IMG/VR virus record: IMGVR_UViG_3300049793_000366
Span: 122,865 to 186,864 of that record
Reading direction: 5' to 3' (one strand)
Length of the DNA: 64,000 bases
From: a virus
Shown: in pieces, positions 2,076 through 62,054 of the stretch
Position numbering within the stretch: the stretch's first letter is position 1
Layout of the letters: every line of letters begins with the position of its first letter
Made by a program: the position numbers and the translations under genes
Notes under the pieces: generated by a model
The model's database searches: none
Told to the model about the DNA's origin: nothing
The model's input: the letters and a program-made list of their open reading frames with translations, nothing else

Positions 2076-2837
2076 GTGTTTTTGAAAAAAATTAAAATAA
2101 TATATACATTTATGAAGCAGAAGATTGAAAACCGAAAACAGCTAAATGACTTTTTCAAAAAAGTAAACGAAGAAGTTGATAAGTATCTTATTGAACATCA
2201 AATCAAACCAAGTAGACTTGCTAAGTATATTATCAGTAATGGTGGGATAGATAAGTTTGTTGAAGAGATTGGACTATCTGAAATTGATGGTATAAATAAA
2301 GTTGTTGACCAGGTTCTTAAATCAAGAGTTCATATGGAAAGGGATGGTATTATGAAGTTTGAGTCATTCAGACTAAATGAAGATGCTGTTGTAACTGGAC
2401 CCAGCCTATTGACAGTAGATGTATTATTTGATACAATCGGTAAGGCTACTATTGAACACGAGAAGATATTAGGGGATTACTTTGATACATCACTTGGTCA
2501 CATAGAAGAATTTAATGCTTTAAAACATCTTTATATCGTTGATTCAACAGAAGGTAAGTATTATGCTTATGCCTTCACTGATAGTGATATGGACACAATG
2601 TTCAATAACATTAAAGAGTTCGTATATAACAACATACCACTTGAGGTAGAAGTTAAACTAACCGCTAATAAGTCAATTAGTATTCCGGTAACAGAAGCGA
2701 ACGTAGAAGCTAAAGTAAATTCTTTGGATGTTACTTCAATATTGGAAGAATTATTTAGTGATTACACGATAGAGAAATTCGATACATCAAGTGATAATCA
2801 CAACGAAGCTATCGTAATCTATAAGAAGAGTAACTAA
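2076..2837 (+). CDS. hypothetical protein
   Basis: 253 aa ORF with TAA stop. Confidence 0.55.
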   Translation: MFLKKIKIIYTFMKQKIENRKQLNDFFKKVNEEVDKYLIEHQIKPSRLAKYIISNGGIDKFVEEIGLSEIDGINKVVDQVLKSRVHMERDGIMKFESFRLNEDAVVTGPSLLTVDVLFDTIGKATIEHEKILGDYFDTSLGHIEEFNALKHLYIVDSTEGKYYAYAFTDSDMDTMFNNIKEFVYNNIPLEVEVKLTANKSISIPVTEANVEAKVNSLDVTSILEELFSDYTIEKFDTSSDNHNEAIVIYKKSN

Positions 2838-3649
2838 TTTTTAGTCACAAACTTAACGTAATTCTTAGTCTCTTTAATGTTTGGAACATTTTCATTTGCT
2901 TCCAATACATTAACTATACCAGCATTATATTCAGATAGTGCTAATTCCCACGCTTTGTCTTCATCGTATTTCTTATTCCACTTATCATACAGAACGTGTA
3001 ATAGATACACGCCTACTTTTATATTATTTTCAGGTGTATGTCCACCAGTCAAATTTAGCTTTTTATAATTTGACGAGAATGTACCAGGCATTATTTGCAT
3101 ATAACCCTTGGCACCAGCAGAGCTTATAGCTTTTGATTTGAACCTATTCTCTTTCCATGCTACGCGAAATAGTATCTTATATGGTACTTCATACTTATCT
3201 GCTTCTTCGAGCATGAGTTCTAAGTGTTCAGTTGGAAACCACTCTGGTATCAATATATTTGACTCATTATAGACTTTATACTTCATATACTCTCGCGTAG
3301 AGAAGAAAGCTGATAAATCCTCAATCGTATTTGTTTTGTTGTAGATGTCAGAGTTTAATGCGTGTATATGGTCATATGAACCAGTTAGCTTAAACTTTAG
3401 ATACTCAATAACTGAGAACGATTGCTTCTGACCGGCTCTATATGATAACCCGATAGATAGCGTGAAAATCAGAAAGCACGTAAGTACAAATCTGTTCTTG
3501 AAGAATAATTTACTGAACTTAGTCAGAGCAAATGGTTCGTTGGCTAAGAATAAAAGAAGATTAGTGAGTGGTTGTGTTACATACCGCTCCACCAAAGGAT
3601 GTCTTTGTCTCATCACCAGTGTATTTATTACTACGTTTAGTTTTTTCAT
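2834..3649 (-). CDS. lytic transglycosylase (SLT domain), membrane-anchored
   Basis: GYMQIMPGTF motif typical of family-1 lytic transglycosylases. N-terminal hydrophobic segment FVLTCFLIFTLSIGLSY. Ends in TAG. Confidence 0.7.
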   Translation of the reverse strand: MKKLNVVINTLVMRQRHPLVERYVTQPLTNLLLFLANEPFALTKFSKLFFKNRFVLTCFLIFTLSIGLSYRAGQKQSFSVIEYLKFKLTGSYDHIHALNSDIYNKTNTIEDLSAFFSTREYMKYKVYNESNILIPEWFPTEHLELMLEEADKYEVPYKILFRVAWKENRFKSKAISSAGAKGYMQIMPGTFSSNYKKLNLTGGHTPENNIKVGVYLLHVLYDKWNKKYDEDKAWELALSEYNAGIVNVLEANENVPNIKETKNYVKFVTKN

Positions 3650-4352: not shown

Positions 4353-4598
4353 ATGATTAAGAAATTTAGCGACTTCGATAAGATAAATGAATCAGCGCCT
4401 ATTGCTGAGTTAGAATCAGCATTTCAACACACTAGTGCGTATGCTGATGCAAGAGCAAAAGTAAAGGCAATAACAGATGAGTTAGAATTTAAATTTCACG
4501 ACTTCTGTGAGCAAAACGGTCACCCAGGTGCCGAAGGTGACAATGACTGTGAGATGACATTCAATAACATCTTAATGGAACTTGTAAGTAGATACTAA
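4353..4598 (+). CDS. hypothetical protein
   Basis: 81 aa ORF abutting its neighbours. Confidence 0.45.
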   Translation: MIKKFSDFDKINESAPIAELESAFQHTSAYADARAKVKAITDELEFKFHDFCEQNGHPGAEGDNDCEMTFNNILMELVSRY

Positions 4599-4600
4599 TT

Positions 4601-5080
4601 ATGAAGCATCTTAAACGTTTTAATGAAGCCATTGAGAAATTTAAGTATTCAAAAAAGGATATAGAAGACGCATATAAGTTTGTAAATGTTTATGCAAGGT
4701 CTGCTAGATTTGAACCAGAGTTCGATGCTGAAACTTACTATTACGATAAGATAGGAACACCAAATTCATTTACATATTTAGAAAAGAATCAGAAAACATC
4801 GGGTGGTGGTAAGGTTAAATCTGCTAATATAGTGGCTTATGATAAAAAAGGTAAATTGGTTGGGTTATTAAGTATTTCATTAACTGAACCAGTTGGAGCA
4901 TTTAAAATCGTAGTAGCCGAAGATTCTGCCCGAAAAGGATGGGGATTAAAACTATTAGATGAAGCAGAAAAAAGAGGGTTTGATATGGTTAACTATATGA
5001 AAAACAATACGTTCACTCACTCCGGAAGACGCTTATGCGAAAAATGGTTGGAAATAAAATTAGAAAAATTTGAACTTTAG
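4601..5080 (+). CDS. hypothetical protein, possible GNAT-fold acetyltransferase
   Basis: SARKGWGLKLLDEAEKRG resembles GNAT motif A (R/Q-x-x-G-x-G/A). This is a weak call. Stop is TAG followed immediately by TAA. Confidence 0.4.
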   Translation: MKHLKRFNEAIEKFKYSKKDIEDAYKFVNVYARSARFEPEFDAETYYYDKIGTPNSFTYLEKNQKTSGGGKVKSANIVAYDKKGKLVGLLSISLTEPVGAFKIVVAEDSARKGWGLKLLDEAEKRGFDMVNYMKNNTFTHSGRRLCEKWLEIKLEKFEL

Positions 5081-5238: not shown

Positions 5239-6504
5239 ATGAAAGAAGAAAAATATATCGCAGTAATGTTTCCTTACCCATCTGGTAGCGGATTGCACAT
5301 AGGTCACTTTTATAACTATGCTATAATCGATTCATATTGTCGTTATTGGCGATATAAGGGAGTTAATGTATTTCAGCCATTTGGTTATGATTCATTTGGC
5401 TTGCCTGCTGAGAATTACGCGAAGAAAGTAGGTCGAGATCCTAAAGATGTTACATATGAAAACATCGAGAGGTTCAGAGCGCAAATGGATAAGATGGACA
5501 CTCAATATGAAGAGAAGTTGATAACATCTGACCCTTCTTACCAGAAATGGACTCAGTGGTTGTTCACTAAATTGAAAGAACACGGTTTGGTTTATAAAGC
5601 TAAAGGGGATGTGAATTACTGCCCTTCTTGTGAGACAGTATTGGCTCGTGAACAGGTTAAGAATGATAAGTGTGATAGATGTTCATCTGTTGTTGAAACC
5701 AGAAGCTTGGAGCAGTGGTATTTTAAGATAACTGCTTATAAAGACCGTTTGATTAAAAACTTGGATAAGATTGATTATCCACAAAGTACGATTAATGCTC
5801 AAAGAGCTTGGTTGGAGAATTTGCACGATTGGTGTGTTTCAAGACAACGTAGTTGGGGTTGCCCTATTCCAATAGAGGGTGAAACTGATACATTGGACAC
5901 ATTTGTAGATTCATCATTCTATTATATCAGATATTGCGACCCATATAATGACAACGAAATTTGTGCTAAAGATAAGTACAAACAAGTTGATGTTTATGTA
6001 GGTGGTAATGAACACGCTTGTATGCATTTGATTTACGCGAGGTTCATCAATATGTTCTTGTATGATATTGGTGTTGTCTCAGAAGAAGAACCATTTAAAA
6101 GAGTAATACATCAAGGTATGATTTTGAACAATGGTGCTAAAATGGCTAAATCGACTGGTAATGTTATTAATCCAGATGATTATAACTCTGATGAATTGAA
6201 ATTTTATTTGATGTTCATTGGTCACTATTTCGATGGTGGTTCTTGGTCTGACCAAAACATATCTGGTATTAAACGCTTTGTCAATAGATTTAAAGAATGG
6301 ATGTCGAGAGAGGGTGATGAAACGATTGACTTGGTTAAGTTTAAAGAAACTGTATTTGGTTATACAGAAGCTTTTAAATTCAATAAGGTTGTTAGTGAAT
6401 TCATGGTGTTGGTAAATCAGAACAGAACTAAAAATATCACAAAGGAATGTAAGAAGGAGATTGTTGATATTATTAAGATTTATATGCCATCAATAGAGGT
6501 ATAA
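5239..6504 (+). CDS. leuS: leucyl-tRNA synthetase-like protein, minimised (catalytic core only; no CP1 editing domain, truncated C-terminus)
   Basis: HIGH motif (FPYPSGSGLHIGHFYNY) and KMSKS variant (AKMAKSTGN). N-terminal ~220 aa are colinear with E. coli LeuRS (QPFGYDSFGLPAE, KITAYKDRL). The sequence then passes directly to CVSRQRSWGCPIPI where CP1 normally inserts. Only 421 aa. Confidence 0.8.
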   Translation: MKEEKYIAVMFPYPSGSGLHIGHFYNYAIIDSYCRYWRYKGVNVFQPFGYDSFGLPAENYAKKVGRDPKDVTYENIERFRAQMDKMDTQYEEKLITSDPSYQKWTQWLFTKLKEHGLVYKAKGDVNYCPSCETVLAREQVKNDKCDRCSSVVETRSLEQWYFKITAYKDRLIKNLDKIDYPQSTINAQRAWLENLHDWCVSRQRSWGCPIPIEGETDTLDTFVDSSFYYIRYCDPYNDNEICAKDKYKQVDVYVGGNEHACMHLIYARFINMFLYDIGVVSEEEPFKRVIHQGMILNNGAKMAKSTGNVINPDDYNSDELKFYLMFIGHYFDGGSWSDQNISGIKRFVNRFKEWMSREGDETIDLVKFKETVFGYTEAFKFNKVVSEFMVLVNQNRTKNITKECKKEIVDIIKIYMPSIEV

Positions 6505-6777: not shown

Positions 6778-7617
6778 TTAATAGTAATTAACAACTAAAA
6801 TTTCTTGCGAATCACCAACGTTTTTGCGTCTTGCTACTTTTTCGTAGTCATAACTAAGGTTCATTACAGTGTATTTCGATAATCTTTCCATAAAAGGATT
6901 TGGTACACCTTTGTGTATTGAAACACCACTAAAGGCGAATCTGATACCTCGTGCGTCTAAATCATCAATTGTGTCGTATAGTTGATTCTCTAATTCCTTT
7001 GACCAGAAAGCATTATAACCAGCTTCCGTTCCAATATAAGGTGGGTCAAAATAAACAAAGTCATTCTTTTTTGGCGGGTTTATAGCCAAGAGGTCAACAA
7101 ATGATAAATTGGTGAATTCAATATTTTTAGTGCTAAGTGCGTGACAGTATTTACGAATTTTTTGTATAGTGCTTTCATTGATGGCTCTTTTCCCCCATGT
7201 CTGGTTGAATTCAAATTTTTTATTAAATCGCATAAGATTATTTGTACAAGAAGAAACCAACGAGAAAAATTGATACGGATCTTTAGTCTGATTGAATTCT
7301 GCCCTTAATTTAACGAATTCTTCTTGTGAGTCTTTATCGATTTTAGATTCTAATATTTTCAATATTTCATCTTCAACAGTTTTTGTTTGTCCTGCCCTTT
7401 GTAGATTAATATAGAATTCTATTAGTGGTGTGATGATATCATTTGCTATAACCTTGTCGTAGCAACAATTTATACTAACGGCTAAACCACCAGCAAATAA
7501 ATCATAGAATTTATCAACCCCATTTGGATGAGGAAAGATAGTTAATAACTGGTTCATAAGTCTATCTTTAGAACCAGTATAATTTGTAGGTGGCTTAAGA
7601 AATCCTTGACTTATCAT
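6778..7617 (-). CDS. dam: DNA adenine methyltransferase (Dam-like N6-MTase)
   Basis: SAM motif YDLFAGGLAVS (FxGxG) and catalytic DPPY (FVYFDPPYIG). Confidence 0.8.
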   Translation of the reverse strand: MISQGFLKPPTNYTGSKDRLMNQLLTIFPHPNGVDKFYDLFAGGLAVSINCCYDKVIANDIITPLIEFYINLQRAGQTKTVEDEILKILESKIDKDSQEEFVKLRAEFNQTKDPYQFFSLVSSCTNNLMRFNKKFEFNQTWGKRAINESTIQKIRKYCHALSTKNIEFTNLSFVDLLAINPPKKNDFVYFDPPYIGTEAGYNAFWSKELENQLYDTIDDLDARGIRFAFSGVSIHKGVPNPFMERLSKYTVMNLSYDYEKVARRKNVGDSQEILVVNYY

Positions 7618-8035
7618 CTTTTCTCTTTTTAGTCATTAATTCATCAAGGTCTTTCACGATTAACATACGTTTCTCATGTTCACAACCTCTTAATTTTCTT
7701 TCCATCTCAGTGTCAAATGCTTCACATAGCTCAGAGCCGGTATTACTTGATACATCAACATCATAGATATTGTGTTTATTACTTTCATCGATAACGGTCA
7801 TTATATAACCATTGGATGAACTGTAAAGCATTATTAATAGCTCACCGTTGCGTATGTGCCTTTTGCTGGTTTTAATAGAGCAGATAAGCTCTGATTCTGA
7901 ATCTTTTACGTATAATTTGAAAAGTTCATATGCTTTCTTCTGAAGCATATTCATACCATCTTTCTTTGGTAGGTTCCAGGAAAAGAATCTTCTGGAACTA
8001 ACCATGAATTTTGATAACTTGTAATTTAAGCTCAT
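7595..8035 (-). CDS. hypothetical protein
   Basis: 146 aa ORF with TAA stop. Confidence 0.5.
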   Translation of the reverse strand: MSLNYKLSKFMVSSRRFFSWNLPKKDGMNMLQKKAYELFKLYVKDSESELICSIKTSKRHIRNGELLIMLYSSSNGYIMTVIDESNKHNIYDVDVSSNTGSELCEAFDTEMERKLRGCEHEKRMLIVKDLDELMTKKRKDDKSRIS

Positions 8036-28527: not shown

Positions 28528-29016
28528 ATGAATACGTTTAAATTTAAAGAACCGTTTGTTGGAATTTTAGTGGGTCCACCGCTATCAGGTAAGTCCACAT
28601 GGCTTCGCGAGAATTTTGACGCTTCTGAAATAGTTATTATTTCTCGTGACCAAATTGTTTTGGACGTATATGGTTCTAACAATTACTCCGATGCTTTTAA
28701 TAATGTAAATCAGAAAGATGTAGATAGACAACTAATTGAAAATATCACTGATGCATCTAAAGGCACAAAAAACGTTATCATTGATATGACTCATATGTCC
28801 TCTAAAAGACGTAGATATAACCTCTCACATTTTCCGAATCACTATAAAGTAGCTTTCCTTTTCCCTATCTTGGATGAAGTTGAATATGCTCGTAGAAATG
28901 AAATGCGTAGACTTGAAGAGAATAAATGGATACCTGAACACGTAATCAAGAATATGATTTCTAGCTATCAACCAATTAAAGAAGAAGAAGGATTTAATAA
29001 AGTTATTTCAATATGA
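28528..29016 (+). CDS. P-loop kinase, polynucleotide kinase-like
   Basis: N-terminal P-loop ILVGPPLSGKSTWLRENF resembles the T4 Pnk kinase domain N-terminus. Confidence 0.5.
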   Translation: MNTFKFKEPFVGILVGPPLSGKSTWLRENFDASEIVIISRDQIVLDVYGSNNYSDAFNNVNQKDVDRQLIENITDASKGTKNVIIDMTHMSSKRRRYNLSHFPNHYKVAFLFPILDEVEYARRNEMRRLEENKWIPEHVIKNMISSYQPIKEEEGFNKVISI

Positions 29017-29462
29017 AGAAGAAAAGAATATACATAGACATGGATGGTGTTTTGTGTGATTTCTATGGTGCTGCACGAAAAGCATTAAAAGAAAACCCAA
29101 AACAACCATTTCCTCAAGCACAGTGGGGATTTTTCCTTAAGCTTAAACCAATTGATGGTGCGCTTGAAGCATTTAATTACTTATTCGAAAATTATGATGT
29201 TTGGATCTTAACCAGACCATCTACACGTAATGTTAATTGCTATACAGAAAAAGCACAATGGGTTTGGGACCACTTAGGTGAGAAAGCAGTTGATAAGCTT
29301 ATTCTATCATGTGATAAGAATTTATTAAAGGGTGATTATTTGATTGATGATAATCACTGGGATTTTGAAGGGGAGCATATTCATTTCAATACTGAAAAAT
29401 TTCCTAACTGGGAAACAGTAGTTAAGTATATAGATTCTTCTTGTAAACAACAATTAAATTAA
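29013..29462 (+). CDS. HAD-family 5'(3')-deoxyribonucleotidase-like phosphatase
   Basis: IYIDMDGVLCDF (HAD motif I DxDG) and DYLIDDN (motif IV), colinear with the NT5C family. Confidence 0.65.
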   Translation: MKKKRIYIDMDGVLCDFYGAARKALKENPKQPFPQAQWGFFLKLKPIDGALEAFNYLFENYDVWILTRPSTRNVNCYTEKAQWVWDHLGEKAVDKLILSCDKNLLKGDYLIDDNHWDFEGEHIHFNTEKFPNWETVVKYIDSSCKQQLN

Positions 29463-29468
29463 TTAACC

Positions 29469-29660
29469 TGGCGAGGTGGTGAAAGTAGACACTGGTGTTA
29501 TCTGTTAACCAATTGTAGAGAGCCGAAAGATGGGAAGCATTGACTTACTATTCGGGTAGCTTTAATAAACAGACGGAAAGACATTGGTCTTTTATTATCG
29601 AAAGATAGTTGCGAAGGAAACAACACAAATGCGGGTTCAAGCCCTGCTCTCGTCACAAAA
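29469..29660 (+). ncRNA. candidate structured RNA or tRNA 3'-half-like element (T-arm plus acceptor 3' strand)
   Basis: About 200-nt ORF-free, relatively GC-rich island. GCGGG-TTCAAGC-CCTGC resembles a T-arm with a 7-nt T-loop, followed by TCTCGTC-A. GGCGAGG at 29469-75 can pair with that strand including G-U wobbles. No canonical D or anticodon arm could be built. Confidence 0.25.
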
Positions 29661-29669
29661 AATAACAAC

Positions 29670-30071
29670 ATGGCAAACGCATGGATTCATTCAGTATCAT
29701 CAGTTAGAAAGTTTGGCGGTAAGCCAGAAGATTATTTAGAAATTCATCGTAAAATGGATTGTTCTAAATCGTATATTTCTGATAATCGACACAGAGCATT
29801 AACACATACAATGTTTTGGGTTAATGAGGTAATGGTTCCTCTATTTGGTTATACAATGACTAATAGTGATAACCGCGTAATTGCTGTCAAGGATATATGT
29901 GAAAGACATATACTCGAAGATTTCCATATGAAATTTATTCCCACCGCACAAGATTATCTTGAACACATGGAGTTCAAAGATTGGATGCAAAATGGTGTTA
30001 AAGGACACCCATCTTCTTATAATAAGCTTGCTGAAAAGAATGCTGAAAAAGAGAAAGAGACAACCGATTAA
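29670..30071 (+). CDS. hypothetical protein
   Basis: 133 aa ORF. Confidence 0.55.
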   Translation: MANAWIHSVSSVRKFGGKPEDYLEIHRKMDCSKSYISDNRHRALTHTMFWVNEVMVPLFGYTMTNSDNRVIAVKDICERHILEDFHMKFIPTAQDYLEHMEFKDWMQNGVKGHPSSYNKLAEKNAEKEKETTD

Positions 30072-42700: not shown

Positions 42701-42911
42701 TGTTTAATCTATCAATTTCGGACTTTAAAAATCCAATGGTTGGTAGGTTAAATTGTCTCAAAACGCCATTCTCATCAGTTATTTTTACACTGATTGAGTT
42801 TTCTGTTGTTGTTACTAAATCGTTTAGTTTAGATAGTAATTCTACCGCATTGCGGTTATAACTTATGATTTGTTCTGCTACGGTTGTAAAGGAATTTCTT
42901 ATTGTTGACAT
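39711..42911 (-). CDS. giant structural protein (1066 aa), putative tail or baseplate component
   Basis: Very long ORF with a central coiled-coil segment (QKQKESKLSLQSSLVKD). No enzymatic motif recognised. Confidence 0.55.
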   Translation of the reverse strand: MSTIRNSFTTVAEQIISYNRNAVELLSKLNDLVTTTENSISVKITDENGVLRQFNLPTIGFLKSEIDRLNNNINTLYSIDSAGSIIQPANNKFKKIITADLNREPATIGSLNVVSSFVTNKNWIFDGLLNPMLNIIIDLNGKIENNVRKCQVRRYIVEFAKDDAGNLTNLGQSALNSFNTLFRGQTAIKIDEFDRWHRTTPGITSPNEPNYDEQIFDLDPNELLYNGLFTVIKVEQDTLNRKLWYHLDTIDYLVTGTNEIRQLAHGDEVIVNVDISTTRYKVVEVSTLASNFRVRFERVEGLQPIAVGIGTLKVYSPVVFNKNVKISVGYDERNVVFVKPLNADNHLLAKDWSLGTGYWTNDLRLNSEDPNNGKSMEQFYTENVYDYGEVLKDLVAKKIPNQLAGTPPAPTLNADNFKVVQINKHLTDTPNGNLIKTKHNEQKNLKSEIQQISDSLIAKNKQIKVTRFTSDAQRKQFELEVDKLQKQKESKLSLQSSLVKDILDISKTTSIGKQSPKFSIRGFWTIPDAIITRGTKPQEIVQFRIQYKYTTKDGKEPTTTTFKLKPVKNGENIKTGAFSNWKEIKTDARKRIQDPKTKQYSWTIEDVSDADTPNINQLDIPISPNERVEIRIKSISEVGWPESPVESDWSQIISLDFPDDLNDVMADDQFILKEATQEELKVRMQSELDARGLSTILDGITVVGNKTYVTSSDSILSGFKDDNGTAIDLHGYLKSLQDRVIALEEKIKRAKGELVITMFRNNQPFVIKNNSEITFNVECEDYLDTFSDTGVPTGRVYQNNIYVIKDFLLKIENKSVESPLGLLSSRIYNTSTELYNTAAPQIFWVNELNQLLFSNTTGKTLTQKNNQFAWSVNYSTIEDTSTVTKLADNIGNAFTTNANNSIVPALASTEYNIGYSETTLLSFNNSNTSLLETSKWVENSVSVSSTTKLLTTIHPVVQDLDKLVETNSDKVHTVPGGPNNAINIPINIYFKMNSLDPNAGTGNNYKYIVLNNVTQTVKHIKKLKFFLENEAENRPFTFTIKFNLSRNKVAVQKNLSNLPTGQNISL

Positions 42912-43024
42912 TTCTTCCTGCTAATTTTTTATTATATATAAAAAAAATATGGTTATGTACCATAGTTGGAATCGCTATTTGTGTGGATTTCGCCATTTGG
43001 ATTTTTTTGCTTATATTTGTAATT

Positions 43025-43342
43025 ATGGACAAATCTTGGTCATTAAAGAATAAGCGTGATATTGAAAATTTATTCAGTAAGGGTAAATCATATACATCTG
43101 GTTGCATTGTAGCCAGATATGTGGACTCGACTGAAACTAAGTTTCTATTCGCTGTTAGTACCCGTCTGTATAAGCGCGCCAATAAGAGAAATAGAGTTAA
43201 GAGGTTGATGCGTGTTGCTGTTGCTGAGATAAAGAATACGGTAGTCAACAAACACGTTGCTTTTATCTATATAGATACTGATATTAAATCATTAAGTGAT
43301 ATAAAAAATAGCATAGCTGGTCTTAAATGTCTGAACCCTTAG
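43025..43342 (+). CDS. rnpA: ribonuclease P protein component (RnpA)
   Basis: RNR motif region VSTRLYKRANKRNRVKRLMRVAV (A-x-x-RNR-h-KR). N-terminal SLKNKRDIENLFSKGKS is colinear with Bacteroidetes RnpA. About 105 aa from the internal Met; the 5' extension of the track ORF (42902) overlaps the upstream gene. Ends in TAG. Confidence 0.7.
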   Translation: MDKSWSLKNKRDIENLFSKGKSYTSGCIVARYVDSTETKFLFAVSTRLYKRANKRNRVKRLMRVAVAEIKNTVVNKHVAFIYIDTDIKSLSDIKNSIAGLKCLNP

Positions 43343-48282: not shown

Positions 48283-49482
48283 ATGATAATTCAGTCACTT
48301 CTCGATTTAGACTATTACAAACTAACAATGGGTCAATTAGCTTTCTTAAGCTTCCCTGATGTTGAAATTGAAGCCGCCTTTAAAAACAGAAAATCAAATA
48401 TTCGATTAGCGGATATTATCCCGGTTGACCGATTGATATCCGAACTCAATCATGTTAGAACTCTGGTTCTTAGTAAAGAACAGTTAAAGTTCGTTGAAAA
48501 ACAGGGCATATTTAAGCCAGAATACCGAGAGTATCTATATCAGATAAACCGTAGCAATCCTCTATCCGAAGTACGAGTAGAGGTTGTTGATGGTCAATTT
48601 GATGTGAGAACAAAGGGTAAATGGCCTAATGCCATTTTGTGGGAAACAATAGTATTAGCTGTTATTAACGAGCTATATTATGAGTATAAATACCCAAATC
48701 TCTCTTATGATGAGGGTCTTACTAGACTTGCGAATAAGATTAAAATTCTTAAAAAGCATCCACAAATTAAATTCTCTGACTTCGGTACTCGAAGAAGAGC
48801 ATCAAGAACATGGCAAGCACTTGTTGTTAATAAATTAAGACAAGCATTACCTAATCAGTTTCTTGGAACATCGAATGTTCAGTTGGCTATGGATTATAAC
48901 ATAACTCCAATTGGAACATTCGCACATGAAATGCCAATGGTTGCTTCTGGTGTTTGGTATGATACTGATGTTGAATTAAAAGCATCACATGGTAGAGTAC
49001 TTGATATGTGGTATGAGTTATATGATGTTAAATTATCAATTGCTCTTACTGATACATTTGGAACCAAATTCTTCTTTGAAGACTTCGTAGACCGCGCACC
49101 AGTTTGGAATGGTTTACGACACGATTCTGGTGATCCATTTGAATTTGGTCATAAAGTATTAGCTTACTACGCATCACTGGGTATTGATTCTAAAACAAAA
49201 ACTATTGTGTTTAGTGATGGTTTGGATTTAGATATCATCATCCGACTCGAAGCAATATTTGGTAAATTAATTAAATGCGTTTTCGGTTGGGGTACGACTC
49301 TGACAAATGACATTGGGTATGAAACATTATCTATTGTTATGAAAGCCATCCGTGCTAATGGTAATGAATTGGTTAAGCTTTCTGATAACTTAAATAAAGC
49401 TACTGGTTCCGATGCTACTAAATCTCGATACATTAGTGTATTTGGGTATGACAATCAAAAGCGTGAAGAGTGTGTAGTCTAA
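48283..49482 (+). CDS. pncB: nicotinate phosphoribosyltransferase
   Basis: Colinear with E. coli PncB: SLLDLDYYKLTM, FGTRRRAS, GLRHDSGDPFEFG, IVFSDGLDLD, VKLSDN. Confidence 0.85.
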   Translation: MIIQSLLDLDYYKLTMGQLAFLSFPDVEIEAAFKNRKSNIRLADIIPVDRLISELNHVRTLVLSKEQLKFVEKQGIFKPEYREYLYQINRSNPLSEVRVEVVDGQFDVRTKGKWPNAILWETIVLAVINELYYEYKYPNLSYDEGLTRLANKIKILKKHPQIKFSDFGTRRRASRTWQALVVNKLRQALPNQFLGTSNVQLAMDYNITPIGTFAHEMPMVASGVWYDTDVELKASHGRVLDMWYELYDVKLSIALTDTFGTKFFFEDFVDRAPVWNGLRHDSGDPFEFGHKVLAYYASLGIDSKTKTIVFSDGLDLDIIIRLEAIFGKLIKCVFGWGTTLTNDIGYETLSIVMKAIRANGNELVKLSDNLNKATGSDATKSRYISVFGYDNQKREECVV

Positions 49483-49508
49483 TAAGTAAAACCTAAAAAC
49501 AAAAACAC

Positions 49509-49808
49509 ATGGAATATAACGGTCAAACAAAAAAGGAATACGAGAAAAACTTCACACGTATTCGTGATATTATCACTAAGGCTGATGGTGATAAGGAAAA
49601 AGCTCTTCGACTTGCTAAAACACAAGCAGACAGAATAGAAGATGAATATAAAGCAATCAATCGTTCAAATGCCGCAGTAAAGCTTGGACATGAGTGGTTA
49701 GCTGACCCTTTCTTCGAAAGAGCTTATGAGCTTGGTGCTGTGGGTAAAATGGAGTACCGCGAATACAAGCTTAAGAAATTATTTGAAATGCAAGAAGAAG
49801 GAGCCTAA
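49509..49808 (+). CDS. hypothetical protein
   Basis: 99 aa ORF. Confidence 0.5.
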   Translation: MEYNGQTKKEYEKNFTRIRDIITKADGDKEKALRLAKTQADRIEDEYKAINRSNAAVKLGHEWLADPFFERAYELGAVGKMEYREYKLKKLFEMQEEGA

Positions 49809-50011
49809 TGAGACAGCAGATTCTTAAATACTTACCTATTAAAATTGCAATATTATTCTCTTTTATTACTGTGCCTCTTATCGCAGCAATATTCGTTAAT
49901 AGTGTTGTAATTTCTTACTTAATTGGTGCTATTTTTTTCGGTTTGCTACTGTTAGTTTACTATATAGTGAAGGGAAGGAAATCTCACCCAGAATTAAAAA
50001 ATAAAATTTGA
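49808..50011 (+). CDS. small membrane protein
   Basis: Two hydrophobic helices in 67 aa. Confidence 0.45.
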   Translation: MRQQILKYLPIKIAILFSFITVPLIAAIFVNSVVISYLIGAIFFGLLLLVYYIVKGRKSHPELKNKI

Positions 50012-50012
50012 A

Positions 50013-50270
50013 ATGAAAGAAGTAAGAATTCTATTAACGGAAGAAACATTCACACTTTTGTGTAAGCAGGGCTATGTTGCATATAAGAATAATATGTTTA
50101 GCGTATCTCAGATAAACATCACAAAAGCCGACTTGGAGAAGTTGATAAGCGGTGATATCATCGATAAACCACAGGATGGTGTTGACTTTAAAATTGCGTT
50201 AATGGATATCGGTTATGATAGGATTTTACCAATAATTAAACGTTCACCATTCTATGGTAATTCTATATAA
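50013..50270 (+). CDS. hypothetical protein
   Basis: 85 aa ORF. Confidence 0.45.
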   Translation: MKEVRILLTEETFTLLCKQGYVAYKNNMFSVSQINITKADLEKLISGDIIDKPQDGVDFKIALMDIGYDRILPIIKRSPFYGNSI

Positions 50271-50535
50271 AAATTTAGTATTTTGTTCAAGTATATATGG
50301 TACTAAACTGACTGGTAGAAAGGATGTGAAATTTTTAGAAGTACATTATGGTAGCGATAAAGATTTTATTGAAAAGTATCAGAAAATTTACCCAAATCAT
50401 CGAAAGGGAATATTCTTAGATGCTAGAAAACCTGTACCGAGAGATTTCAGACTCGATGTTGAACATATGATTAAGTCAGACCCACTGTTAATTCAAACAA
50501 TTCGTGATTTAAAGCTTGAAGAGTTATGTCAATAG
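50254..50535 (+). CDS. hypothetical protein
   Basis: 93 aa ORF ending in TAG. Confidence 0.45.
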   Translation: MVILYKNLVFCSSIYGTKLTGRKDVKFLEVHYGSDKDFIEKYQKIYPNHRKGIFLDARKPVPRDFRLDVEHMIKSDPLLIQTIRDLKLEELCQ

Positions 50536-50906
50536 AAGAGAAAATATTCATATATGGGTTTATGTTTATTATGCTTGGTGTTCTATACTTCATCGGATTT
50601 TTTATACGTGACTATAAACAAAAGTATCTACGTAATAAAAGAATGCAGAGGTTGAATTGGAATAAGGTATTGAAAATATTCGCGTGTGTTACTGGATTTT
50701 GTTTACTTGGTTCTATCAACAATAAAATGTTTACTTGGTATGAAGCTCCGATAATGGGATTTACTATCACTGCTGTGATTTTGTTTGCTGGTATATTTAG
50801 ACCAGAGAATGATACAAATGAGTATAAACAATTCGATAATCCTGAGTTTAAGGTATATGAGAAAGCACATCAGAGAGATAGAAAAATTAAAGATATTTTA
50901 AAATGA
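50526..50906 (+). CDS. hypothetical membrane protein
   Basis: Three hydrophobic helices in 126 aa. Confidence 0.5.
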   Translation: MSIEEKIFIYGFMFIMLGVLYFIGFFIRDYKQKYLRNKRMQRLNWNKVLKIFACVTGFCLLGSINNKMFTWYEAPIMGFTITAVILFAGIFRPENDTNEYKQFDNPEFKVYEKAHQRDRKIKDILK

Positions 50907-51457
50907 AGGTAGGATTATTCTTTGGGTCATTTAACCCAATACACTTAGGTCACTTAGAGATTGCTGAGAAATCAGCTAAATATGTAGATGAAGTTTGGTT
51001 CATTGTTTCACCTCACAATCCATTTAAGGATCCGAGTATGTTGATAAACCAAACTTCTCGATTAGAAATGGTTAAGTTAGCCGTTGAGTCTACACCGCAT
51101 TATAAAGTTAGTGATGTTGAATTTAATTTACCAACACCTACGAGAACTCATGTTACTTTAGAAAAATTAATCGAAGAACACGAGCATGAATTTTTATTGA
51201 TATTTGGTTCTGATTGTGTGAATACATTACACACATGGGAAAGAGGTGATTGGATTTTAGAAACATTTCCTATCATCGCATTTAAGAGAGAATCTGAGGA
51301 TGTAAATCCTGAAATTTATAAAAAGTTAATATCAGAAACTCATATATCATCTACGATAATACGAAATAATATTATAAATGGTTTGCCGGTTGATAGTCTT
51401 CTACCAACTTTAGTTGAGCAATACATATATAATAATGGATTATGGTCACACAAGTAA
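50903..51457 (+). CDS. nadD: nicotinate/nicotinamide mononucleotide adenylyltransferase
   Basis: GSFNPIHLGHL (HxGH nucleotidyltransferase motif) and C-terminal ISSTIIR motif. Confidence 0.8.
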   Translation: MKVGLFFGSFNPIHLGHLEIAEKSAKYVDEVWFIVSPHNPFKDPSMLINQTSRLEMVKLAVESTPHYKVSDVEFNLPTPTRTHVTLEKLIEEHEHEFLLIFGSDCVNTLHTWERGDWILETFPIIAFKRESEDVNPEIYKKLISETHISSTIIRNNIINGLPVDSLLPTLVEQYIYNNGLWSHK

Positions 51458-51711
51458 ATAAAGTACTACACTTTGATAATTCGAGAATAGAACTATCGCA
51501 AACTGGTCTTTGTTTTACTGCCTTTTTCTACACGAATGATAGCGAGAAACCTTGTTTTCATTTTAAATTTTATTCGGATGGAAAGTCGATAATTGAGGAT
51601 TTTAAGAAGGAAGCTCGTAACTATATGTCAACCAGTATATTGACTGATTTTATCAACAAAAACCCTGATGTATTACGGACAATTAATTTTGATAATTTAA
51701 TTGTTAATTGA
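51442..51711 (+). CDS. hypothetical protein
   Basis: 89 aa ORF. Confidence 0.45.
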   Translation: MVTQVNKVLHFDNSRIELSQTGLCFTAFFYTNDSEKPCFHFKFYSDGKSIIEDFKKEARNYMSTSILTDFINKNPDVLRTINFDNLIVN

Positions 51712-51730
51712 GAAAAAGTTTGTATATTTG
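51701..51730 (+). promoter_or_regulatory. Bacteroidetes-type promoter (TTG -33 element, 19-nt spacer, TATATTTG -7 element)
   Basis: TTG at 51701-03 and TATATTTG at 51723-30, about 35 nt upstream of the pncA start. Confidence 0.4.
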
Positions 51731-51765
51731 TAATTGATTAATGGACACTAAAAACCAAAACATAT

Positions 51766-52383
51766 ATGTTTAAATTAAAACCAAATACTCGTTCATTGTT
51801 CTGGAATGTTGACACTCAAGTTGACTTCATGAATTCAGAAGGTAAGTTATACGTTACTGACGCAGAACAAATCAAAGACACTTTAGCAAAAATAACCAAG
51901 TTCGCTAAAGACAACAATGTTCAGGTTGTTAATACTGCTGATTGGCATTATGCTGATTCTGCTGAGTTATCCGAAACACCTGATTTTATAAATACCTTCC
52001 CACCACACTGTATGGCTAATACGCCTGGTGCTGAGTTGATACCGGAAACAAAACCAGAAAAGTATGATTCTATCATTGATTGGAAAAATCCAAAATGTGA
52101 TATTAAAACTGACTCTACAAACTTTTTAGTCTTGAAAGATAAGTTTGATGTCTTCACTGGAAATCAGTTCACTAAAAGATTAATTGATGCTTTAAACCCA
52201 GATGTTGTTTACGTCTATGGTGTAGCTACAAATGTCTGTGTTGACTGTGCTGTTAACGGTTTACTTGATAACGGTTATAAAGTGGTTGTGTTTGAAGATG
52301 CTATTAAAGAGCTTCCAAATATACCATCACCAATACAAAATTGGATAGACAAAGGAGCAGAAATTATTAAATTCACAAACTAA
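51766..52383 (+). CDS. pncA: nicotinamidase (isochorismatase family)
   Basis: Isochorismatase-fold layout: N-terminal D..Q.DF, conserved Lys region (VLKDKFDVF), catalytic Cys in GVATNVCVDCAV. Confidence 0.75.
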   Translation: MFKLKPNTRSLFWNVDTQVDFMNSEGKLYVTDAEQIKDTLAKITKFAKDNNVQVVNTADWHYADSAELSETPDFINTFPPHCMANTPGAELIPETKPEKYDSIIDWKNPKCDIKTDSTNFLVLKDKFDVFTGNQFTKRLIDALNPDVVYVYGVATNVCVDCAVNGLLDNGYKVVVFEDAIKELPNIPSPIQNWIDKGAEIIKFTN

Positions 52384-52395
52384 AATATAAATACT

Positions 52396-53250
52396 ATGAA
52401 TACGAAAAAAGTATCAAATCACATCACCAATTGGTTAAAAGATTTTGCATTAAATACTAAACAAAACGGTTACGTTATCGGAGTATCTGGTGGAATTGAC
52501 TCCGCAGTTGTTTCGACACTATGCGCCCGTACTGGATTACCACTTATTGTTGTGAGTATGCCTATTCATCAAGAAGCTAATCAAGTTTCTCGCGCACAAG
52601 AGCATATGGATTGGTTGAAAAAAAATTATCCAAATGTAACACAGTTTGAATTTGACTTAACATCAGTTTATGATTCATTCGTAACTAAGTTAGATGGTAA
52701 AACACATTTTATTTCAAAGCCTGAGCATGATACACAGGTTGCTGATAAAATGTTCTTAACACTTGCGAATACTCGCTCTCGTTTGAGAATGACAACACTT
52801 TATTCACTTGCCGGATTAAACAATATGCTTGTTGCTGGTACTGGTAATAAAGTAGAAGACTTTGGTGTAGGATTCTTCACTAAGTATGGTGATGGTGGAA
52901 TTGATGTATCACCAATCGGTGAGTTGATGAAATCTGAGGTATACATATTGGGTGCTGAATTAGGTATAAACCAAGCAATACTTTCAGCAAGACCTACTGA
53001 TGGTCTTTGGGATGATGGTAGAACAGATGAAGACCAAATTGGTGCTACTTATGATGAACTTGAGTGGGCTATGGGTGTTCAAGAAGAATTGGGAAATAAT
53101 CCTGAGACTTTATACGAAATGAACGAAAGACAAACGATAGTGTGGAATATTTATTTGTCTCGACACACCGCTAACTCACATAAAATGCAAATGCCACCAG
53201 TTTGCTCATTAAAAGGAATTAAATATGATGAAGAAGTTGTTGCACAGTAA
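52396..53250 (+). CDS. nadE: NH3-dependent NAD+ synthetase
   Basis: PP-loop GVSGGIDSAV and GFFTKYGDGGIDVSPIG, colinear with E. coli NadE. Confidence 0.85.
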   Translation: MNTKKVSNHITNWLKDFALNTKQNGYVIGVSGGIDSAVVSTLCARTGLPLIVVSMPIHQEANQVSRAQEHMDWLKKNYPNVTQFEFDLTSVYDSFVTKLDGKTHFISKPEHDTQVADKMFLTLANTRSRLRMTTLYSLAGLNNMLVAGTGNKVEDFGVGFFTKYGDGGIDVSPIGELMKSEVYILGAELGINQAILSARPTDGLWDDGRTDEDQIGATYDELEWAMGVQEELGNNPETLYEMNERQTIVWNIYLSRHTANSHKMQMPPVCSLKGIKYDEEVVAQ

Positions 53251-53596
53251 TCTATCTGGTGTTGAGAACACCAGTGATTTAAATTATGTTTTTTCTTTAA
53301 TTAGAAAGGCATCAAATTCAATCGAAAGAACTGCTTTAATAAAAAAAGCATTGAAACTTAATGAAGAGGTTGGTGAATTATCAGCAGAAGTTTTAAGAGA
53401 AGATGGTTATAAAGACAGCACTTATACGAAAGAAGAAATTCGTAGAAGAATAATCGAAGAGGCAGTTGATTCATTAGTTATGATTGGTGATATTCTAAAC
53501 GATGTTAAAGCAACCGATTCTGAAATAATTGACTGCACCGAAGATGCTGTTACGAAATGGTTGACTAAACTCGATGAGAAGAAGAATAAAGTCTGA
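53225..53596 (+). CDS. MazG-like nucleotide pyrophosphohydrolase domain protein
   Basis: EEVGELSAEVL...EEAVDSLVMIGDIL matches the all-alpha NTP-PPase (MazG/HisE) E-x-x-E...E-x-x-D motif pair. Confidence 0.5.
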   Translation: MMKKLLHSNLSGVENTSDLNYVFSLIRKASNSIERTALIKKALKLNEEVGELSAEVLREDGYKDSTYTKEEIRRRIIEEAVDSLVMIGDILNDVKATDSEIIDCTEDAVTKWLTKLDEKKNKV

Positions 53597-53822
53597 GTGG
53601 CGTAGTGAGACTAAAAATCTCACAGAGATTGGATATCTTCAACACACCATCAATACGGTGAATGATATGATAGCAGAGACAGAGGTGTTGGTTGATAGAT
53701 TGCTCGATAAGGGTGAATTAACTGACGTTGACCGTCTTATGCTTAGAGAATTGGAAGAATATAAAGTAGGATTAAGAGAGTTAAAAGCTCAAGGAATAAA
53801 AAATTTAAAAGAAGCACTATGA
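53574..53822 (+). CDS. hypothetical protein
   Basis: 82 aa. The 5' end overlaps the previous gene, so the true start is probably an internal Met. Confidence 0.4.
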   Translation: MRRRIKSEWRSETKNLTEIGYLQHTINTVNDMIAETEVLVDRLLDKGELTDVDRLMLRELEEYKVGLRELKAQGIKNLKEAL

Positions 53823-54226
53823 AAAAATTAACAGCTTATGTTGTATTCGAAAAGGGGTACGAGTACAATGACGAAATTTATCACTTACCTGATGTAAGCG
53901 GTGGTGATCCAAAGAGAGTAACATTCTCAAAAGAAGATGCTAAGAATCTTATTACTGTGTTGAGCAGAGATTCATTCAGAGGATTGGATATTGGTAATTA
54001 TACATATGACCTAAAAGATGTAGTTGATGAAATATCTCTAAAAGAGATATTCAAAATCAATAAGTGGAAATGGGATGAAGATAATTTAACTGTTCCTGAG
54101 AAAGCAACCGATGAACAAATCGATGAGGTTATGAAATTTATTGATTTACAGTTTTATGACTTTCAGGAAGTTGAAATGGATATTGCATCAATGCGTAATG
54201 CAAAAATAGAAATAGTAGAAAGCTAA
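53819..54226 (+). CDS. hypothetical protein
   Basis: 135 aa ORF. Confidence 0.5.
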   Translation: MKKLTAYVVFEKGYEYNDEIYHLPDVSGGDPKRVTFSKEDAKNLITVLSRDSFRGLDIGNYTYDLKDVVDEISLKEIFKINKWKWDEDNLTVPEKATDEQIDEVMKFIDLQFYDFQEVEMDIASMRNAKIEIVES

Positions 54227-54762
54227 TGAATTTTAAAAATAAACCGAACCATTGTATTAGTACTGAGAATGGTCAAGTGTGGGTGTCTCGTTCGGTAGCA
54301 GTAGTGGTTACTACCTTACTACGATGTAATGATGAATTATATGCGCTTATGATTAAGCGTGGTGAGAGCGTTCATGCTTCGGGTAAATGGTGTATGCCTT
54401 GTGGTTACTTAGATTGGGATGAAACCGCGTCTGAGTGTGCTGTTAGAGAGATTTGGGAAGAATCTGGATTAGATGTTCTGGGTCTATCTAAATCTGAAAT
54501 TGAACATAATGGTTTACATAATGTGTGGGATTTAAATACTAATCCTGACTTAAATGATAGTCAAGATGTAGCTCTTCATTATTCAATAATAATATCTTCT
54601 GATAACTTTCCTAAGCTTAGTGATGAAAATGCCGAAGAGAATGAGGTAGTTGGCCTTGCGTGGGTTAAACTTTCTGAACTTGGTGAATATAACTTAGCAT
54701 TCCGTCACGACGAAAGAATAAAAAAGTTTTTGGATTACTATGAGAAGATTAAAGTTAAATAA
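54226..54762 (+). CDS. Nudix hydrolase
   Basis: Nudix box GKWCMPCGYLDWDETASECAVREIWEESGLDV (G-x5-E-x7-REUxEExGU). Confidence 0.7.
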   Translation: MNFKNKPNHCISTENGQVWVSRSVAVVVTTLLRCNDELYALMIKRGESVHASGKWCMPCGYLDWDETASECAVREIWEESGLDVLGLSKSEIEHNGLHNVWDLNTNPDLNDSQDVALHYSIIISSDNFPKLSDENAEENEVVGLAWVKLSELGEYNLAFRHDERIKKFLDYYEKIKVK

Positions 54763-54917: not shown

Positions 54918-55355
54918 ATGGAAATTTTAAATAGAAGAGCATATTACGATTATAGCATCATAGAACATTATGAAGCGGGTATTATGTTGACTGGTTCGGA
55001 GATAAAGTCAATACGAGGTGGTGAAGCAAACTTAAATGAAGCATATGTATTCATCAATAACGGCGAGGTATTCGTTAAGAATATGTACATTTCTAAATTT
55101 GAACAATCTTCATATTTGAACCATGAAGAAAAGCGTGATAGAAAATTATTACTTTCTAAAACTCAAATTTTAAAAATTGAAAAATATCTACAAACAAAAG
55201 GTACTGTGATTATACCGATAAAAGTATTTTTCAGCAAACGCTGGGCAAAACTAAAAATCGGAGTTGGTCGTGGTAAGAAAACCTACGATAAGAGAGAATC
55301 GATAAAAGAAAGAGAATCAAAAAGAGAATTGTCTCGACTGAACTCGAAAGTATAG
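54918..55355 (+). CDS. smpB: SsrA-binding protein SmpB
   Basis: Colinear with E. coli SmpB: NRRAYYDY, EAGIMLTGSEIKSIRGGEANL, GEVFV, KLKIGVGRGKKTYDKRESIKERE. Stop is TAG then TAA. Confidence 0.8.
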   Translation: MEILNRRAYYDYSIIEHYEAGIMLTGSEIKSIRGGEANLNEAYVFINNGEVFVKNMYISKFEQSSYLNHEEKRDRKLLLSKTQILKIEKYLQTKGTVIIPIKVFFSKRWAKLKIGVGRGKKTYDKRESIKERESKRELSRLNSKV

Positions 55356-61705: not shown

Positions 61706-62054
61706 TTAGAACTTCATTAAGTTTGTTTCCTCTGTAAATTGACTTATTTGGTTTAGTCGTTTTATATATCTTATTAAGCCAAGTACCTAAGTCTAAAGCT
61801 TGTCTTGAATTATAATAATGTGAAGACCTCTCGCTATAAAATTTGCTATGAATATCTTCTTGTTCATGTTCCTCGAAAGAGTCCCACCATACAGGATCTA
61901 TTAGCATTTTAACCTGAGTACCAAATGTTTTTAATTGCCTTTTCTTCTCACGTCTTCTCGCTCTATCATTATGATATTGAGAATCTTCGTTGTCTTGCTT
62001 TTCTCTCCAACGTTGTACTTGAGGTTCATTTAAATATCTGTTATTTTTCATCAT
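61689..62054 (-). CDS. hypothetical basic protein
   Basis: 121 aa, Arg/Lys/Glu-rich N-terminus. Confidence 0.5.
   Translation of the reverse strand: MMKNNRYLNEPQVQRWREKQDNEDSQYHNDRARRREKKRQLKTFGTQVKMLIDPVWWDSFEEHEQEDIHSKFYSERSSHYYNSRQALDLGTWLNKIYKTTKPNKSIYRGNKLNEVLSDEKI

Follow-up and report, generated by a model that had tools for sequence, protein, structure and literature searches.

A putative leucine-type tRNA gene with a 115-nucleotide insert in its anticodon loop in a giant bacteriophage

Interrupted transfer RNA (tRNA) genes have been described in the Lak megaphages, the closest known parallel to the element examined here. Devoto et al. (2019) reported Lak tRNAs with "enigmatic introns", believed to be the first in phage tRNAs: 79-141 nt long, they interrupt the anticodon loops of tRNA-Phe(GAA), tRNA-Tyr, tRNA-Thr and tRNA-Gly, match no Rfam family, are identical across cohorts and are missing from some alleles (PMC6784885). 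The introns in Table S6 of that study have in common a nested tRNA-like minihelix, built of a 7-8-bp stem and a GGTTCGAAT T arm, and, ahead of it, a small hairpin and an A-rich linker (PMC6784885). Crisci et al. (2021) restated the Lak tRNA introns (PMC8346664), Al-Shayeb et al. (2020) made no mention of introns, and shorter inserts of 23-52 nt have been noted in a 595-kb phage. Here we analyze a 64,000-nt stretch of viral DNA (IMG/VR record IMGVR_UViG_3300049793_000366, positions 122,865-186,864; hereafter the window, whose own numbering is used throughout) in which an element at 29470-29655 on the plus strand is best read as a complete leucine-type tRNA gene of a giant bacteriophage, with a 115-nt insert interrupting its anticodon loop. 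The interruption is a known but mechanistically unexplained phenomenon, and the insert is a new sequence type of it.

All four tRNA arms are present in the element. The 5' strand of the acceptor stem, GGCGAGG (29470-29476), forms seven of seven pairs with 29648-29654, two of them G-U, in the parse made by ARAGORN with introns allowed (ARAGORN -i). The D arm (29479-29492; GTG / AAAGTAGA / CAC) has a 3-bp stem and an 8-nt loop, which is shortened and holds one G where G18-G19 would be expected. The 5' strand of the anticodon stem, GTGTT (29495-29499), makes five Watson-Crick pairs with AACAC (29622-29626), and two nucleotides (29500-29501) separate it from the insert (29502-29616 by the ARAGORN boundaries, which might belong as much as 4 nt closer to the 3' end). 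Downstream of the insert the anticodon loop continues with GAAAC (29617-29621), which would be G34-A35-A36-A37-C38 if the junction were at 33/34. A 4-nt, class I-type variable loop, AAAT (29627-29630), leads into a canonical T arm, in which the 5-bp stem of GCGGG (29631-29635) and CCTGC (29643-29647) encloses the 7-nt TTCRANY-type loop TTCAAGC (29636-29642); the acceptor 3' strand TCTCGTC (29648-29654) and the discriminator A73 (29655) complete the 7-bp acceptor stem and the frame. No CCA is encoded, the bases after A73 being CAAAAA. Together with the short, single-G D loop and the two nucleotides, rather than one, between the D and anticodon stems, this is how the element departs from a canonical tRNA. 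Its stems are undecayed: they hold no mismatches beyond the G-U pairs, and the anticodon stem is rightly placed relative to the D and T arms.

The match to a tRNA is far beyond chance, since ARAGORN -i reports a single gene in the whole window (29470-29656) and none in null sequence, first in 1.9 Mb and then in 19.2 Mb of first-order Markov sequence matched to the window in composition. Default ARAGORN and Rfam report nothing at 29470-29655, where the tRNA model RF00005 fails to bridge the insert. When the insert is removed in silico, the resulting 72-nt sequence has a cloverleaf as its minimum-free-energy structure, and default ARAGORN calls it a tRNA at each of five adjacent junctions. These results extend an earlier note on this DNA, which had described a GC-rich, coding-free island ending in a T arm and an acceptor 3' strand. 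That observation is confirmed, and its reading of the 3' end at 29631-29655 was exact, but it was under-read, as the island contains a whole tRNA frame and not a 3' fragment. The D and anticodon arms that it failed to build both exist, and the complementary GGCGAGG that it noticed is indeed there, with seven pairs, at 29470-29476 and not at 29469-29475. Its proposal of a 3' remnant marking an attP-like site or integration scar does not agree with an intact 5' acceptor strand, D arm and both anticodon-stem strands, whereas its proposal of an intron-containing or otherwise unusual tRNA was right in substance. The intron-mode ARAGORN run that it suggested is what finds the gene, and the null sequence speaks against its caveat that the T-arm match might be fortuitous.

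The body of this tRNA appears to be of the leucine type. When its D and T arms were compared with 147 tRNAs predicted in related phage DNA, tRNA-Leu genes took ranks 1, 2, 3 and 5; one example from a related phage reads GCCTCGGTGGTGGAATTGGTAGTCAC...GCGGGTTCAAGTCCCGC where the window reads GGCGAGGTGGTGAAAGTAGACAC...GCGGGTTCAAGCCCTGC, the window T arm resembling the tRNA-Leu T arm GCGGGTTCAAGTCCCGC. A73 likewise fits leucine identity (PMC2377443). The long class II variable arm is absent, its place being taken by the AAAT loop; a giant variable arm and an alternative class II parse were both ruled out, since downstream of the D arm there is no local hairpin that could be accepted as an anticodon arm. 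A class I-type tRNA-Leu(CAA) does exist in Streptomyces coelicolor, where it is charged with leucine (PMC6614811).

The anticodon depends on the exact junction. Four adjacent junctions each rebuild a 7-nt loop that starts with A32-U33 and ends with A37-C38, and they yield the anticodons GAA (Phe) at 33/34, CAA (Leu) at 34/35, CUA (amber suppressor) at 35/36 and CUG (Gln) at 36/37. All four are constructible alike from the one sequence, with a leucine anticodon at 34/35 only. The leucine-type body makes CAA the most coherent of the four, and the likeliest product is thus probably tRNA-Leu(CAA). Position 34/35 is also the classical site of group I introns in tRNA-Leu. A need for a suppressor tRNA was ruled out, as code 11 gives good readings of the genes of the window. 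A canonical 73-nt suppressor tRNA(CUA) lies on the same contig just beyond the left edge of the window (L025 12908-12980, complement), and it may hint that other parts of the genome recode TAG, a trait of Lak phages.

The insert itself is less easily placed. No Rfam family was found in it, even at E<=10 with lax filters on a 501-nt search, and the group I and group II models were silent in that search; RF00028 also failed to reach its gathering score anywhere in the window. We found no second copy of the insert in the window and no T-arm-like hairpin or Rfam tRNA match inside it. A predicted inner stem of CTGTT (29502-29506) with AACAG (29568-29572) closes an irregular hairpin of 61 nt and imitates the anticodon stem of the exons; it is followed by the predicted hairpins AAAGAC-ATTG-GTCTTT (about 29577-29592) and ATTATC-GAAA-GATAGT (about 29594-29609), the latter with a GNRA loop, and then by a single-stranded tail. 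Overall, the folding energy of the insert is unexceptional (z = -1.5). The motif GTAGAGAG occurs at 29515, and GAAAGA occurs three times (29525, 29576 and 29600), a recurrence with P = 2e-4 in dinucleotide shuffles for a motif chosen post hoc. Two of the GAAAGA copies share the longer context C(C/G)GAAAGA ... CAUUG(A/G), and only the third copy lies in the GNRA hairpin.

Compared with the Lak introns, the insert shares a related clade of phages, a location in the anticodon loop of an intact phage tRNA, a similar length (115 versus 79-141 nt) and the lack of an Rfam family. It differs in having no small hairpin, A-rich linker or nested minihelix with a GGTTCGAAT T arm, and no sequence similarity between it and the Lak introns was detected. 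The Lak junction is at 36/37, whereas that of the window may be any of the four from 33/34 to 36/37, and the Lak hosts are tRNA-Phe, tRNA-Tyr, tRNA-Thr and tRNA-Gly, whereas the window body is leucine-type. Other insert-bearing tRNAs occur in relatives, where they are backed by the Rfam tRNA model: one in the Mahaphage genome LR756502 has a 31-nt anticodon-loop insert (L023 40672-40774), one at L085 5039-5182 has a 72-nt insert after position 37 (52 bits), and the tRNA adjacent to it (L085 5246-5424) has an insert of about 107 nt that is placed in the variable region (37 bits). A "265-nt intron" called by ARAGORN in LR756502 was rejected as a chimera of two adjacent tRNAs. That genome has 44 tRNAs in arrays (L023 25274-43327 and L024 3955-25770), and many of those for Lys, Glu, Gln, Asn and Thr, isotypes that are usually short, are 79-89 nt long.

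Group I introns of tRNA genes (surveyed in PMC13011429), of which the tRNA-Leu(UAA) intron at 34/35 is the classical example, resemble the insert in their anticodon-loop site, their leucine-type host, the word UGUAGAGA and the U...G boundary at 33/34. The insert differs from them in matching no covariance model, in being well under about 200 nt and in having no convincing P1 and no identifiable P3-P7 or P4-P6. Introns of the bulge-helix-bulge type in archaea and eukaryotes likewise lie in or near the anticodon loop, vary in length and are spliced by proteins, but no such motif, whose hallmark is a 4-bp helix at the splice sites with a 3-nt bulge on either side, can be drawn at any of the candidate junctions. 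The S. coelicolor tRNA-Leu(CAA) shares the short variable loop, is charged by a bacterial leucyl-tRNA synthetase (LeuRS) and corresponds to the product predicted for a 34/35 junction (PMC6614811); its gene is cellular and uninterrupted, and the likeness is drawn from its description.

Transfer-messenger RNA (tmRNA) offers a different comparison. Like tmRNA, the element has ends that close an acceptor stem and a T arm, a large domain at the site of the anticodon loop, the frame of a synthetase that ignores the anticodon, and a phage that encodes SmpB. Yet tmRNA has no D stem, and its alanine identity pair is G3-U70. The element has both a D stem and an anticodon stem, carries G2-U71 and C3-G70 in place of G3-U70, and shows no recognized pseudoknots or tag frame; no alanine-rich tag frame was found, the only open frame ending in ...IIER. 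The tmRNA mode of ARAGORN and the Rfam tmRNA models were silent, so that the tmRNA considered in the earlier note finds no support, and neither program found a tmRNA in 84 kb, comprising the window and 20 kb of contig on its flanks.

Neither a homologue nor an intron-less allele of the element was found in INPHARED, IMG/VR, JGI metagenomes, GTDB or related loci. A blastn search of the region against INPHARED phages gave chance matches only (including L004), as did exact and gapped exon patterns in IMG/VR (L003 and L014). A 20-mer from the 5' exon recovered a chance repeat in JGI metagenomes (L015) and a chance match, in a coding sequence, in GTDB genomes (L176). Searches of 1.67 Mb of related phage loci with nhmmer and blastn returned nothing, and a gapped pattern of three GAAAGA words in IMG/VR returned 87 stretches, of which the 80 examined were chance matches, none of them in a tRNA frame.

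Leucine-framed long tRNA-like genes do, however, occur in other phages. The window and L052, an ARAGORN -i match from a related locus, both have a leucine-type D arm followed at a distance of 20-21 nt by GTAGAGAG. A pattern with these features (GTGGYGRAA N0-3 GTAGACRC N12-32 GTAGAGAG), which the window fits with a 21-nt spacing, retrieved 14 IMG/VR loci (L177-L190) with 12 distinct sequences of about six types, against a chance expectation of about 0.1, itself a rough estimate on an assumed collection size. Each of the 14 spans 93-190 nt and is framed like a tRNA, combining a 7-bp acceptor stem with a leucine-type D arm, a T arm and a discriminator A; members with a standard frame passed a programmatic check, while members with a variant frame failed it and were verified by inspection. 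The two frame types have either a standard TTCGAAT T loop or a 6-bp T stem with a TGCAAAT or TGAAAAT loop. Default ARAGORN finds none of the 14, and the Rfam tRNA model finds four, at 30-44 bits, with inserts of 40-42 nt where alignments are shown. Most members are solo genes with unrelated neighbors, and no neighbor gene is conserved across the family. Where members were inspected by hand, conserved frames surround centers that diverge widely, and some of these members, such as L180 and L177, have no obvious anticodon arm that could be rebuilt. A hairpin shared by L177 and L179 shows a single compensatory change. Since the pattern was of our own choosing, the shared motif is partly ascertainment; that the pattern lands only on over-long tRNA-like frames nevertheless speaks for the reality of this undescribed group, whether its members share an origin or a function. 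Membership thus denotes shared features and only putative homology.

Further members of this kind were seen at L052, L061 (19489-19582), L074 (16013-16167) and L134 (about 7750-7860). The element of L184 lies on the same contig as normal tRNA-Leu genes, and by inspection its center can form an H-type pseudoknot (GGCUU/GAGCC and GAAUGU/ACAUUC). L184 also carries a tRNA-Arg(UCU) at 5977-6249 with a 197-nt group I intron (Rfam match 6002-6189), an ochre-suppressor-type tRNA(UUA) at 4571-4648 and a GOLLD RNA at 7256-7670 (306 bits).

The window comes from a 185-kb Logan contig that is carried by one sample only. Large proteins of the phage are about 41% identical to those of the Mahaphage genomes LR745206 and LR756502 (634-642 kb) and match Lak phages more distantly, and on these sequences the phage is placed in the Mahaphage/Lak megaphage group. 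The island at 29463-29669 is poor in open reading frames (ORFs) and is flanked by plus-strand ORFs for a nucleotidase of the NT5C/HAD type (29013-29462) and a DUF6915 protein (29670-30071). Only a poor 57-amino-acid frame on the minus strand crosses it, which was ruled out as a gene because its peptide is implausible and mirrors the tRNA; the earlier description of an island with no coding potential therefore holds. So does its description as GC-richer than its flanks: GC content is 41.1%, compared with 32.6% for the window, at the 99th percentile of 207-nt windows, with 50-51% in the tRNA exons and 38% in the insert. We looked at the locus for a promoter or terminator belonging to the tRNA element and found none; the element sits within a tightly packed, co-directional gene block.

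Gene order around the element is conserved. The closest relative keeps the order AAA_33 kinase, NT5C, a slot occupied in the window by the tRNA element, and DUF6915 ... Band_7. In relatives examined gene by gene, the slot contains a gene for a 141-165-amino-acid ribosomal L12-like protein, tightly upstream of DUF6915; genes resembling the L7/L12 C-terminal domain were seen at L006 2501-2998, L008 2583-3008, L001 about 2560-3010 and L002 about 2560-2997. Of 62 related IMG/VR loci sampled with the downstream gene, nearly all have an ORF directly adjoining DUF6915, and none has a tRNA ahead of it. The element is not a remnant of the L12-like gene. Because the slot in relatives holds an L12-like gene or an ORF and no tRNA, the element appears to be a lineage-specific replacement.

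Several genes of this phage could act on such an RNA. A LeuRS-like protein of 421 amino acids (5239-6504, plus strand; TIGR00396, 393 bits) keeps the catalytic core and lacks both the CP1 editing domain and the C-terminal tRNA-binding domain, its alignment to Thermus thermophilus LeuRS skipping residues about 240-417; it is possibly the cognate enzyme of the element. RnpA (42902-43342, plus strand; PF00825, TIGR00188) may help in 5' processing, and an RNA ligase (62041-62685, minus strand; PF09414 in Pfam) is a candidate for sealing the halves if proteins splice. SmpB is encoded at 54918-55355 on the plus strand (PF01668, E = 6e-53). Directly upstream of the RNA lie a Pnkp-like AAA_33 kinase (28528-29016) and the HAD/NT5C phosphatase (29013-29462), and beyond the window the contig encodes a 2H-SAK phosphoesterase and a CCA-adding/PcnB-like nucleotidyltransferase (L025 14400-16386). 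The kinase-phosphatase pair also occurs in relatives that lack the RNA and is therefore not specifically linked to it, and repair gene sets are common in jumbo phages with or without introns (PMC7824862). The earlier note had connected the locus with SmpB, RnpA, LeuRS and PTH2: the first three are in the window (the last of them as a LeuRS-like protein), and PTH2 was not seen among the scanned ORFs of at least 120 amino acids. For LeuRS the connection is strengthened, given exons that resemble tRNA-Leu and a phage that encodes a truncated LeuRS. The window also contains a cluster for salvage and synthesis of nicotinamide adenine dinucleotide (NAD) at 48283-54762 and 60196-61209, with NAPRTase, an NMNAT-type cytidylyltransferase-like protein, an isochorismatase-type nicotinamidase, NAD synthase and NUDIX, as well as a phosphoribosyl pyrophosphate synthetase.

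We tentatively favor, at somewhat under an even chance, an interrupted gene of the tRNA-Leu type; its insert would be excised once RNase P cleavage, 3' trimming and CCA addition had taken place, with class I tRNA-Leu(CAA) as the likeliest product. The steps that we infer would begin with co-transcription of the RNA with the flanking plus-strand genes. RNase P, with RnpA supplied by the phage, would trim the 5' end, a 3' nuclease would trim the other end, and the CCA-adding-type enzyme of the phage would add CCA. Removal of the insert and joining of the halves, which a role in translation would require, would give a 72-nt class I-type tRNA, most coherently tRNA-Leu(CAA) through the 34/35 junction, and LeuRS, possibly the editing-less enzyme of the phage itself, would charge it. 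As no known ribozyme signature is present in the insert, cutting by a nuclease followed by healing and sealing by the phage kinase, phosphatase and RNA ligase seems slightly likelier than self-splicing by an unrecognized ribozyme.

A number of results weigh against splicing into a working tRNA. No splicing mechanism can be named from the sequence: the searches with group I and group II models were negative, 115 nt is well under the usual sizes of group I introns, inspection found no convincing P1 or P10 pairing, and inspection of the candidate junctions and predicted folds found no bulge-helix-bulge. A tRNA-splicing endonuclease was not found among the ORFs scanned, and to our knowledge none is known in bacteria. 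The unexceptional folding energy, the missing nested tRNA-like element of the Lak introns and the failure of the searches to find a homologue or intron-less allele point the same way, as does the presence of the kinase-phosphatase pair in relatives without the RNA. The body, too, has features that fit poorly, as a leucine-type tRNA without a long variable arm is unusual, and the short D loop with a single G and the extra nucleotide between the D and anticodon stems add to this.

Alternatively, the element may be a tRNA-Leu-framed non-coding RNA that is not spliced, the molecule of about 187 nt being the final product, with a topology like that of tmRNA on a leucine rather than an alanine frame; we regard this as a possibility of some weight, though a doubtful one. 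The acceptor, D and T parts would draw in RNase P and the CCA-adding enzyme, and possibly LeuRS as well, while the 115-nt domain would carry the function, and the RNA could serve as a decoy for tRNA-targeting nucleases, as a protein-binding module or as a charged RNA outside normal decoding. This develops the small structured regulatory RNA of the earlier note, which survives as a rival in this form, with splicing preferred to it. Much of what favors it comes from the 14 IMG/VR loci described above, which far exceed the rough expectation, escape plain ARAGORN, mostly stand outside tRNA arrays, vary in their centers while keeping their frames, in several cases offer no obvious anticodon arm to rebuild, and in L184 coexist with normal tRNA-Leu genes. 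Moreover, bacterial LeuRS can leucylate without the anticodon arm, which is needed for editing only (PMC2377443), and the phage LeuRS has no editing domain; together with the recurrence of solo leucine-framed long RNAs, this makes an unspliced product plausible, and such RNAs could be leucylated outside ordinary decoding. The lack of a known splicing signature and the post hoc GAAAGA recurrence also fit. Against these stand the perfect anticodon stem and rebuildable canonical loop of the window, unlike some family members, an insert that is not unusually structured, the ascertainment built into our pattern, the one compensatory change in the family and the fact that no function can be tied to the insert; from what is known of tmRNA, a frame with a D stem would presumably not suit SmpB. 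The fuller claim, that the RNA is never spliced and belongs to a previously undescribed set of leucine-framed phage tRNA-like RNAs of 93-190 nt, mostly solo, with a GUAGAGAG motif after the D arm and a variable domain replacing or expanding the anticodon region, seems to us rather unlikely.

Two further explanations are improbable. The gene may be dead, a tRNA-Leu-type gene inactivated by a recent insertion, functionless and awaiting deletion, as might be suspected of an orphan that is absent at this position from all 62 related IMG/VR loci, where relatives have an L12-like gene in the slot, and that has a shortened D loop and no splicing signature. However, every stem is intact, with no mismatches save G-U, the locus lies in a tightly packed co-directional block of the kind from which useless DNA is normally lost, and interrupted tRNAs of a similar kind are found repeatedly in related phages, those of Lak phages being conserved across cohorts (PMC6784885). 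Still less probable is a miniaturized or degenerate self-splicing intron of the group I type, with its junction at 33/34 (GAA) or 34/35 (CAA). Here the rule that the 5' exon ends in U and the intron in G (PMC13011429) is obeyed at 33/34 alone; bacterial tRNA group I introns occur at 33/34, including in tRNA-Phe(GAA), and at 34/35 in tRNA-Leu; and the insert has a GNRA hairpin and shares UGUAGAGA and, further on, AGACGG with the core GUGUAGAGACUUGACGG of the genuine group I intron in the L184 tRNA-Arg. The two shared words, though, lie about 50 nt apart in the insert and are not adjacent, RF00028 gives no match at E<=10 on 501 nt, and the length of 115 nt compares with 197 nt in L184 and an average of about 206 nt in Jug phages (PMC12880540). 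By inspection, the best P1 has four weak pairs (UUAU with GUAG) and P10 just two, with no P3/P7 pseudoknot or G-binding site.

Standard annotation by default ARAGORN, Rfam and the bacterial mode of tRNAscan overlooks this gene, just as default ARAGORN passes over tRNA-like genes of comparable excess length in many other phage contigs. Two leads emerge from the locus, namely the pairing with an editing-less LeuRS and the wider leucine-framed family. If the RNA is not spliced, the leucine frame and the editing-less LeuRS would point to a new class of chargeable tRNA-like RNAs, which may act as a leucine-frame counterpart of tmRNA, as donors for non-ribosomal aminoacyl transfer or as decoys for tRNA-directed host defenses. 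If it is spliced, as we tentatively prefer, then bacteria or giant phages would remove tRNA introns by neither the group I nor the group II route. How such introns are removed has been a question since the 2019 Lak report, and the RNA ligase, kinase and phosphatase of this contig are candidates for the task. With an RNA of about 187 nt whose ends are defined, and with RnpA, a CCA-adding-type enzyme, an RNA ligase and a LeuRS encoded alongside it, the locus is a compact and tractable test case.

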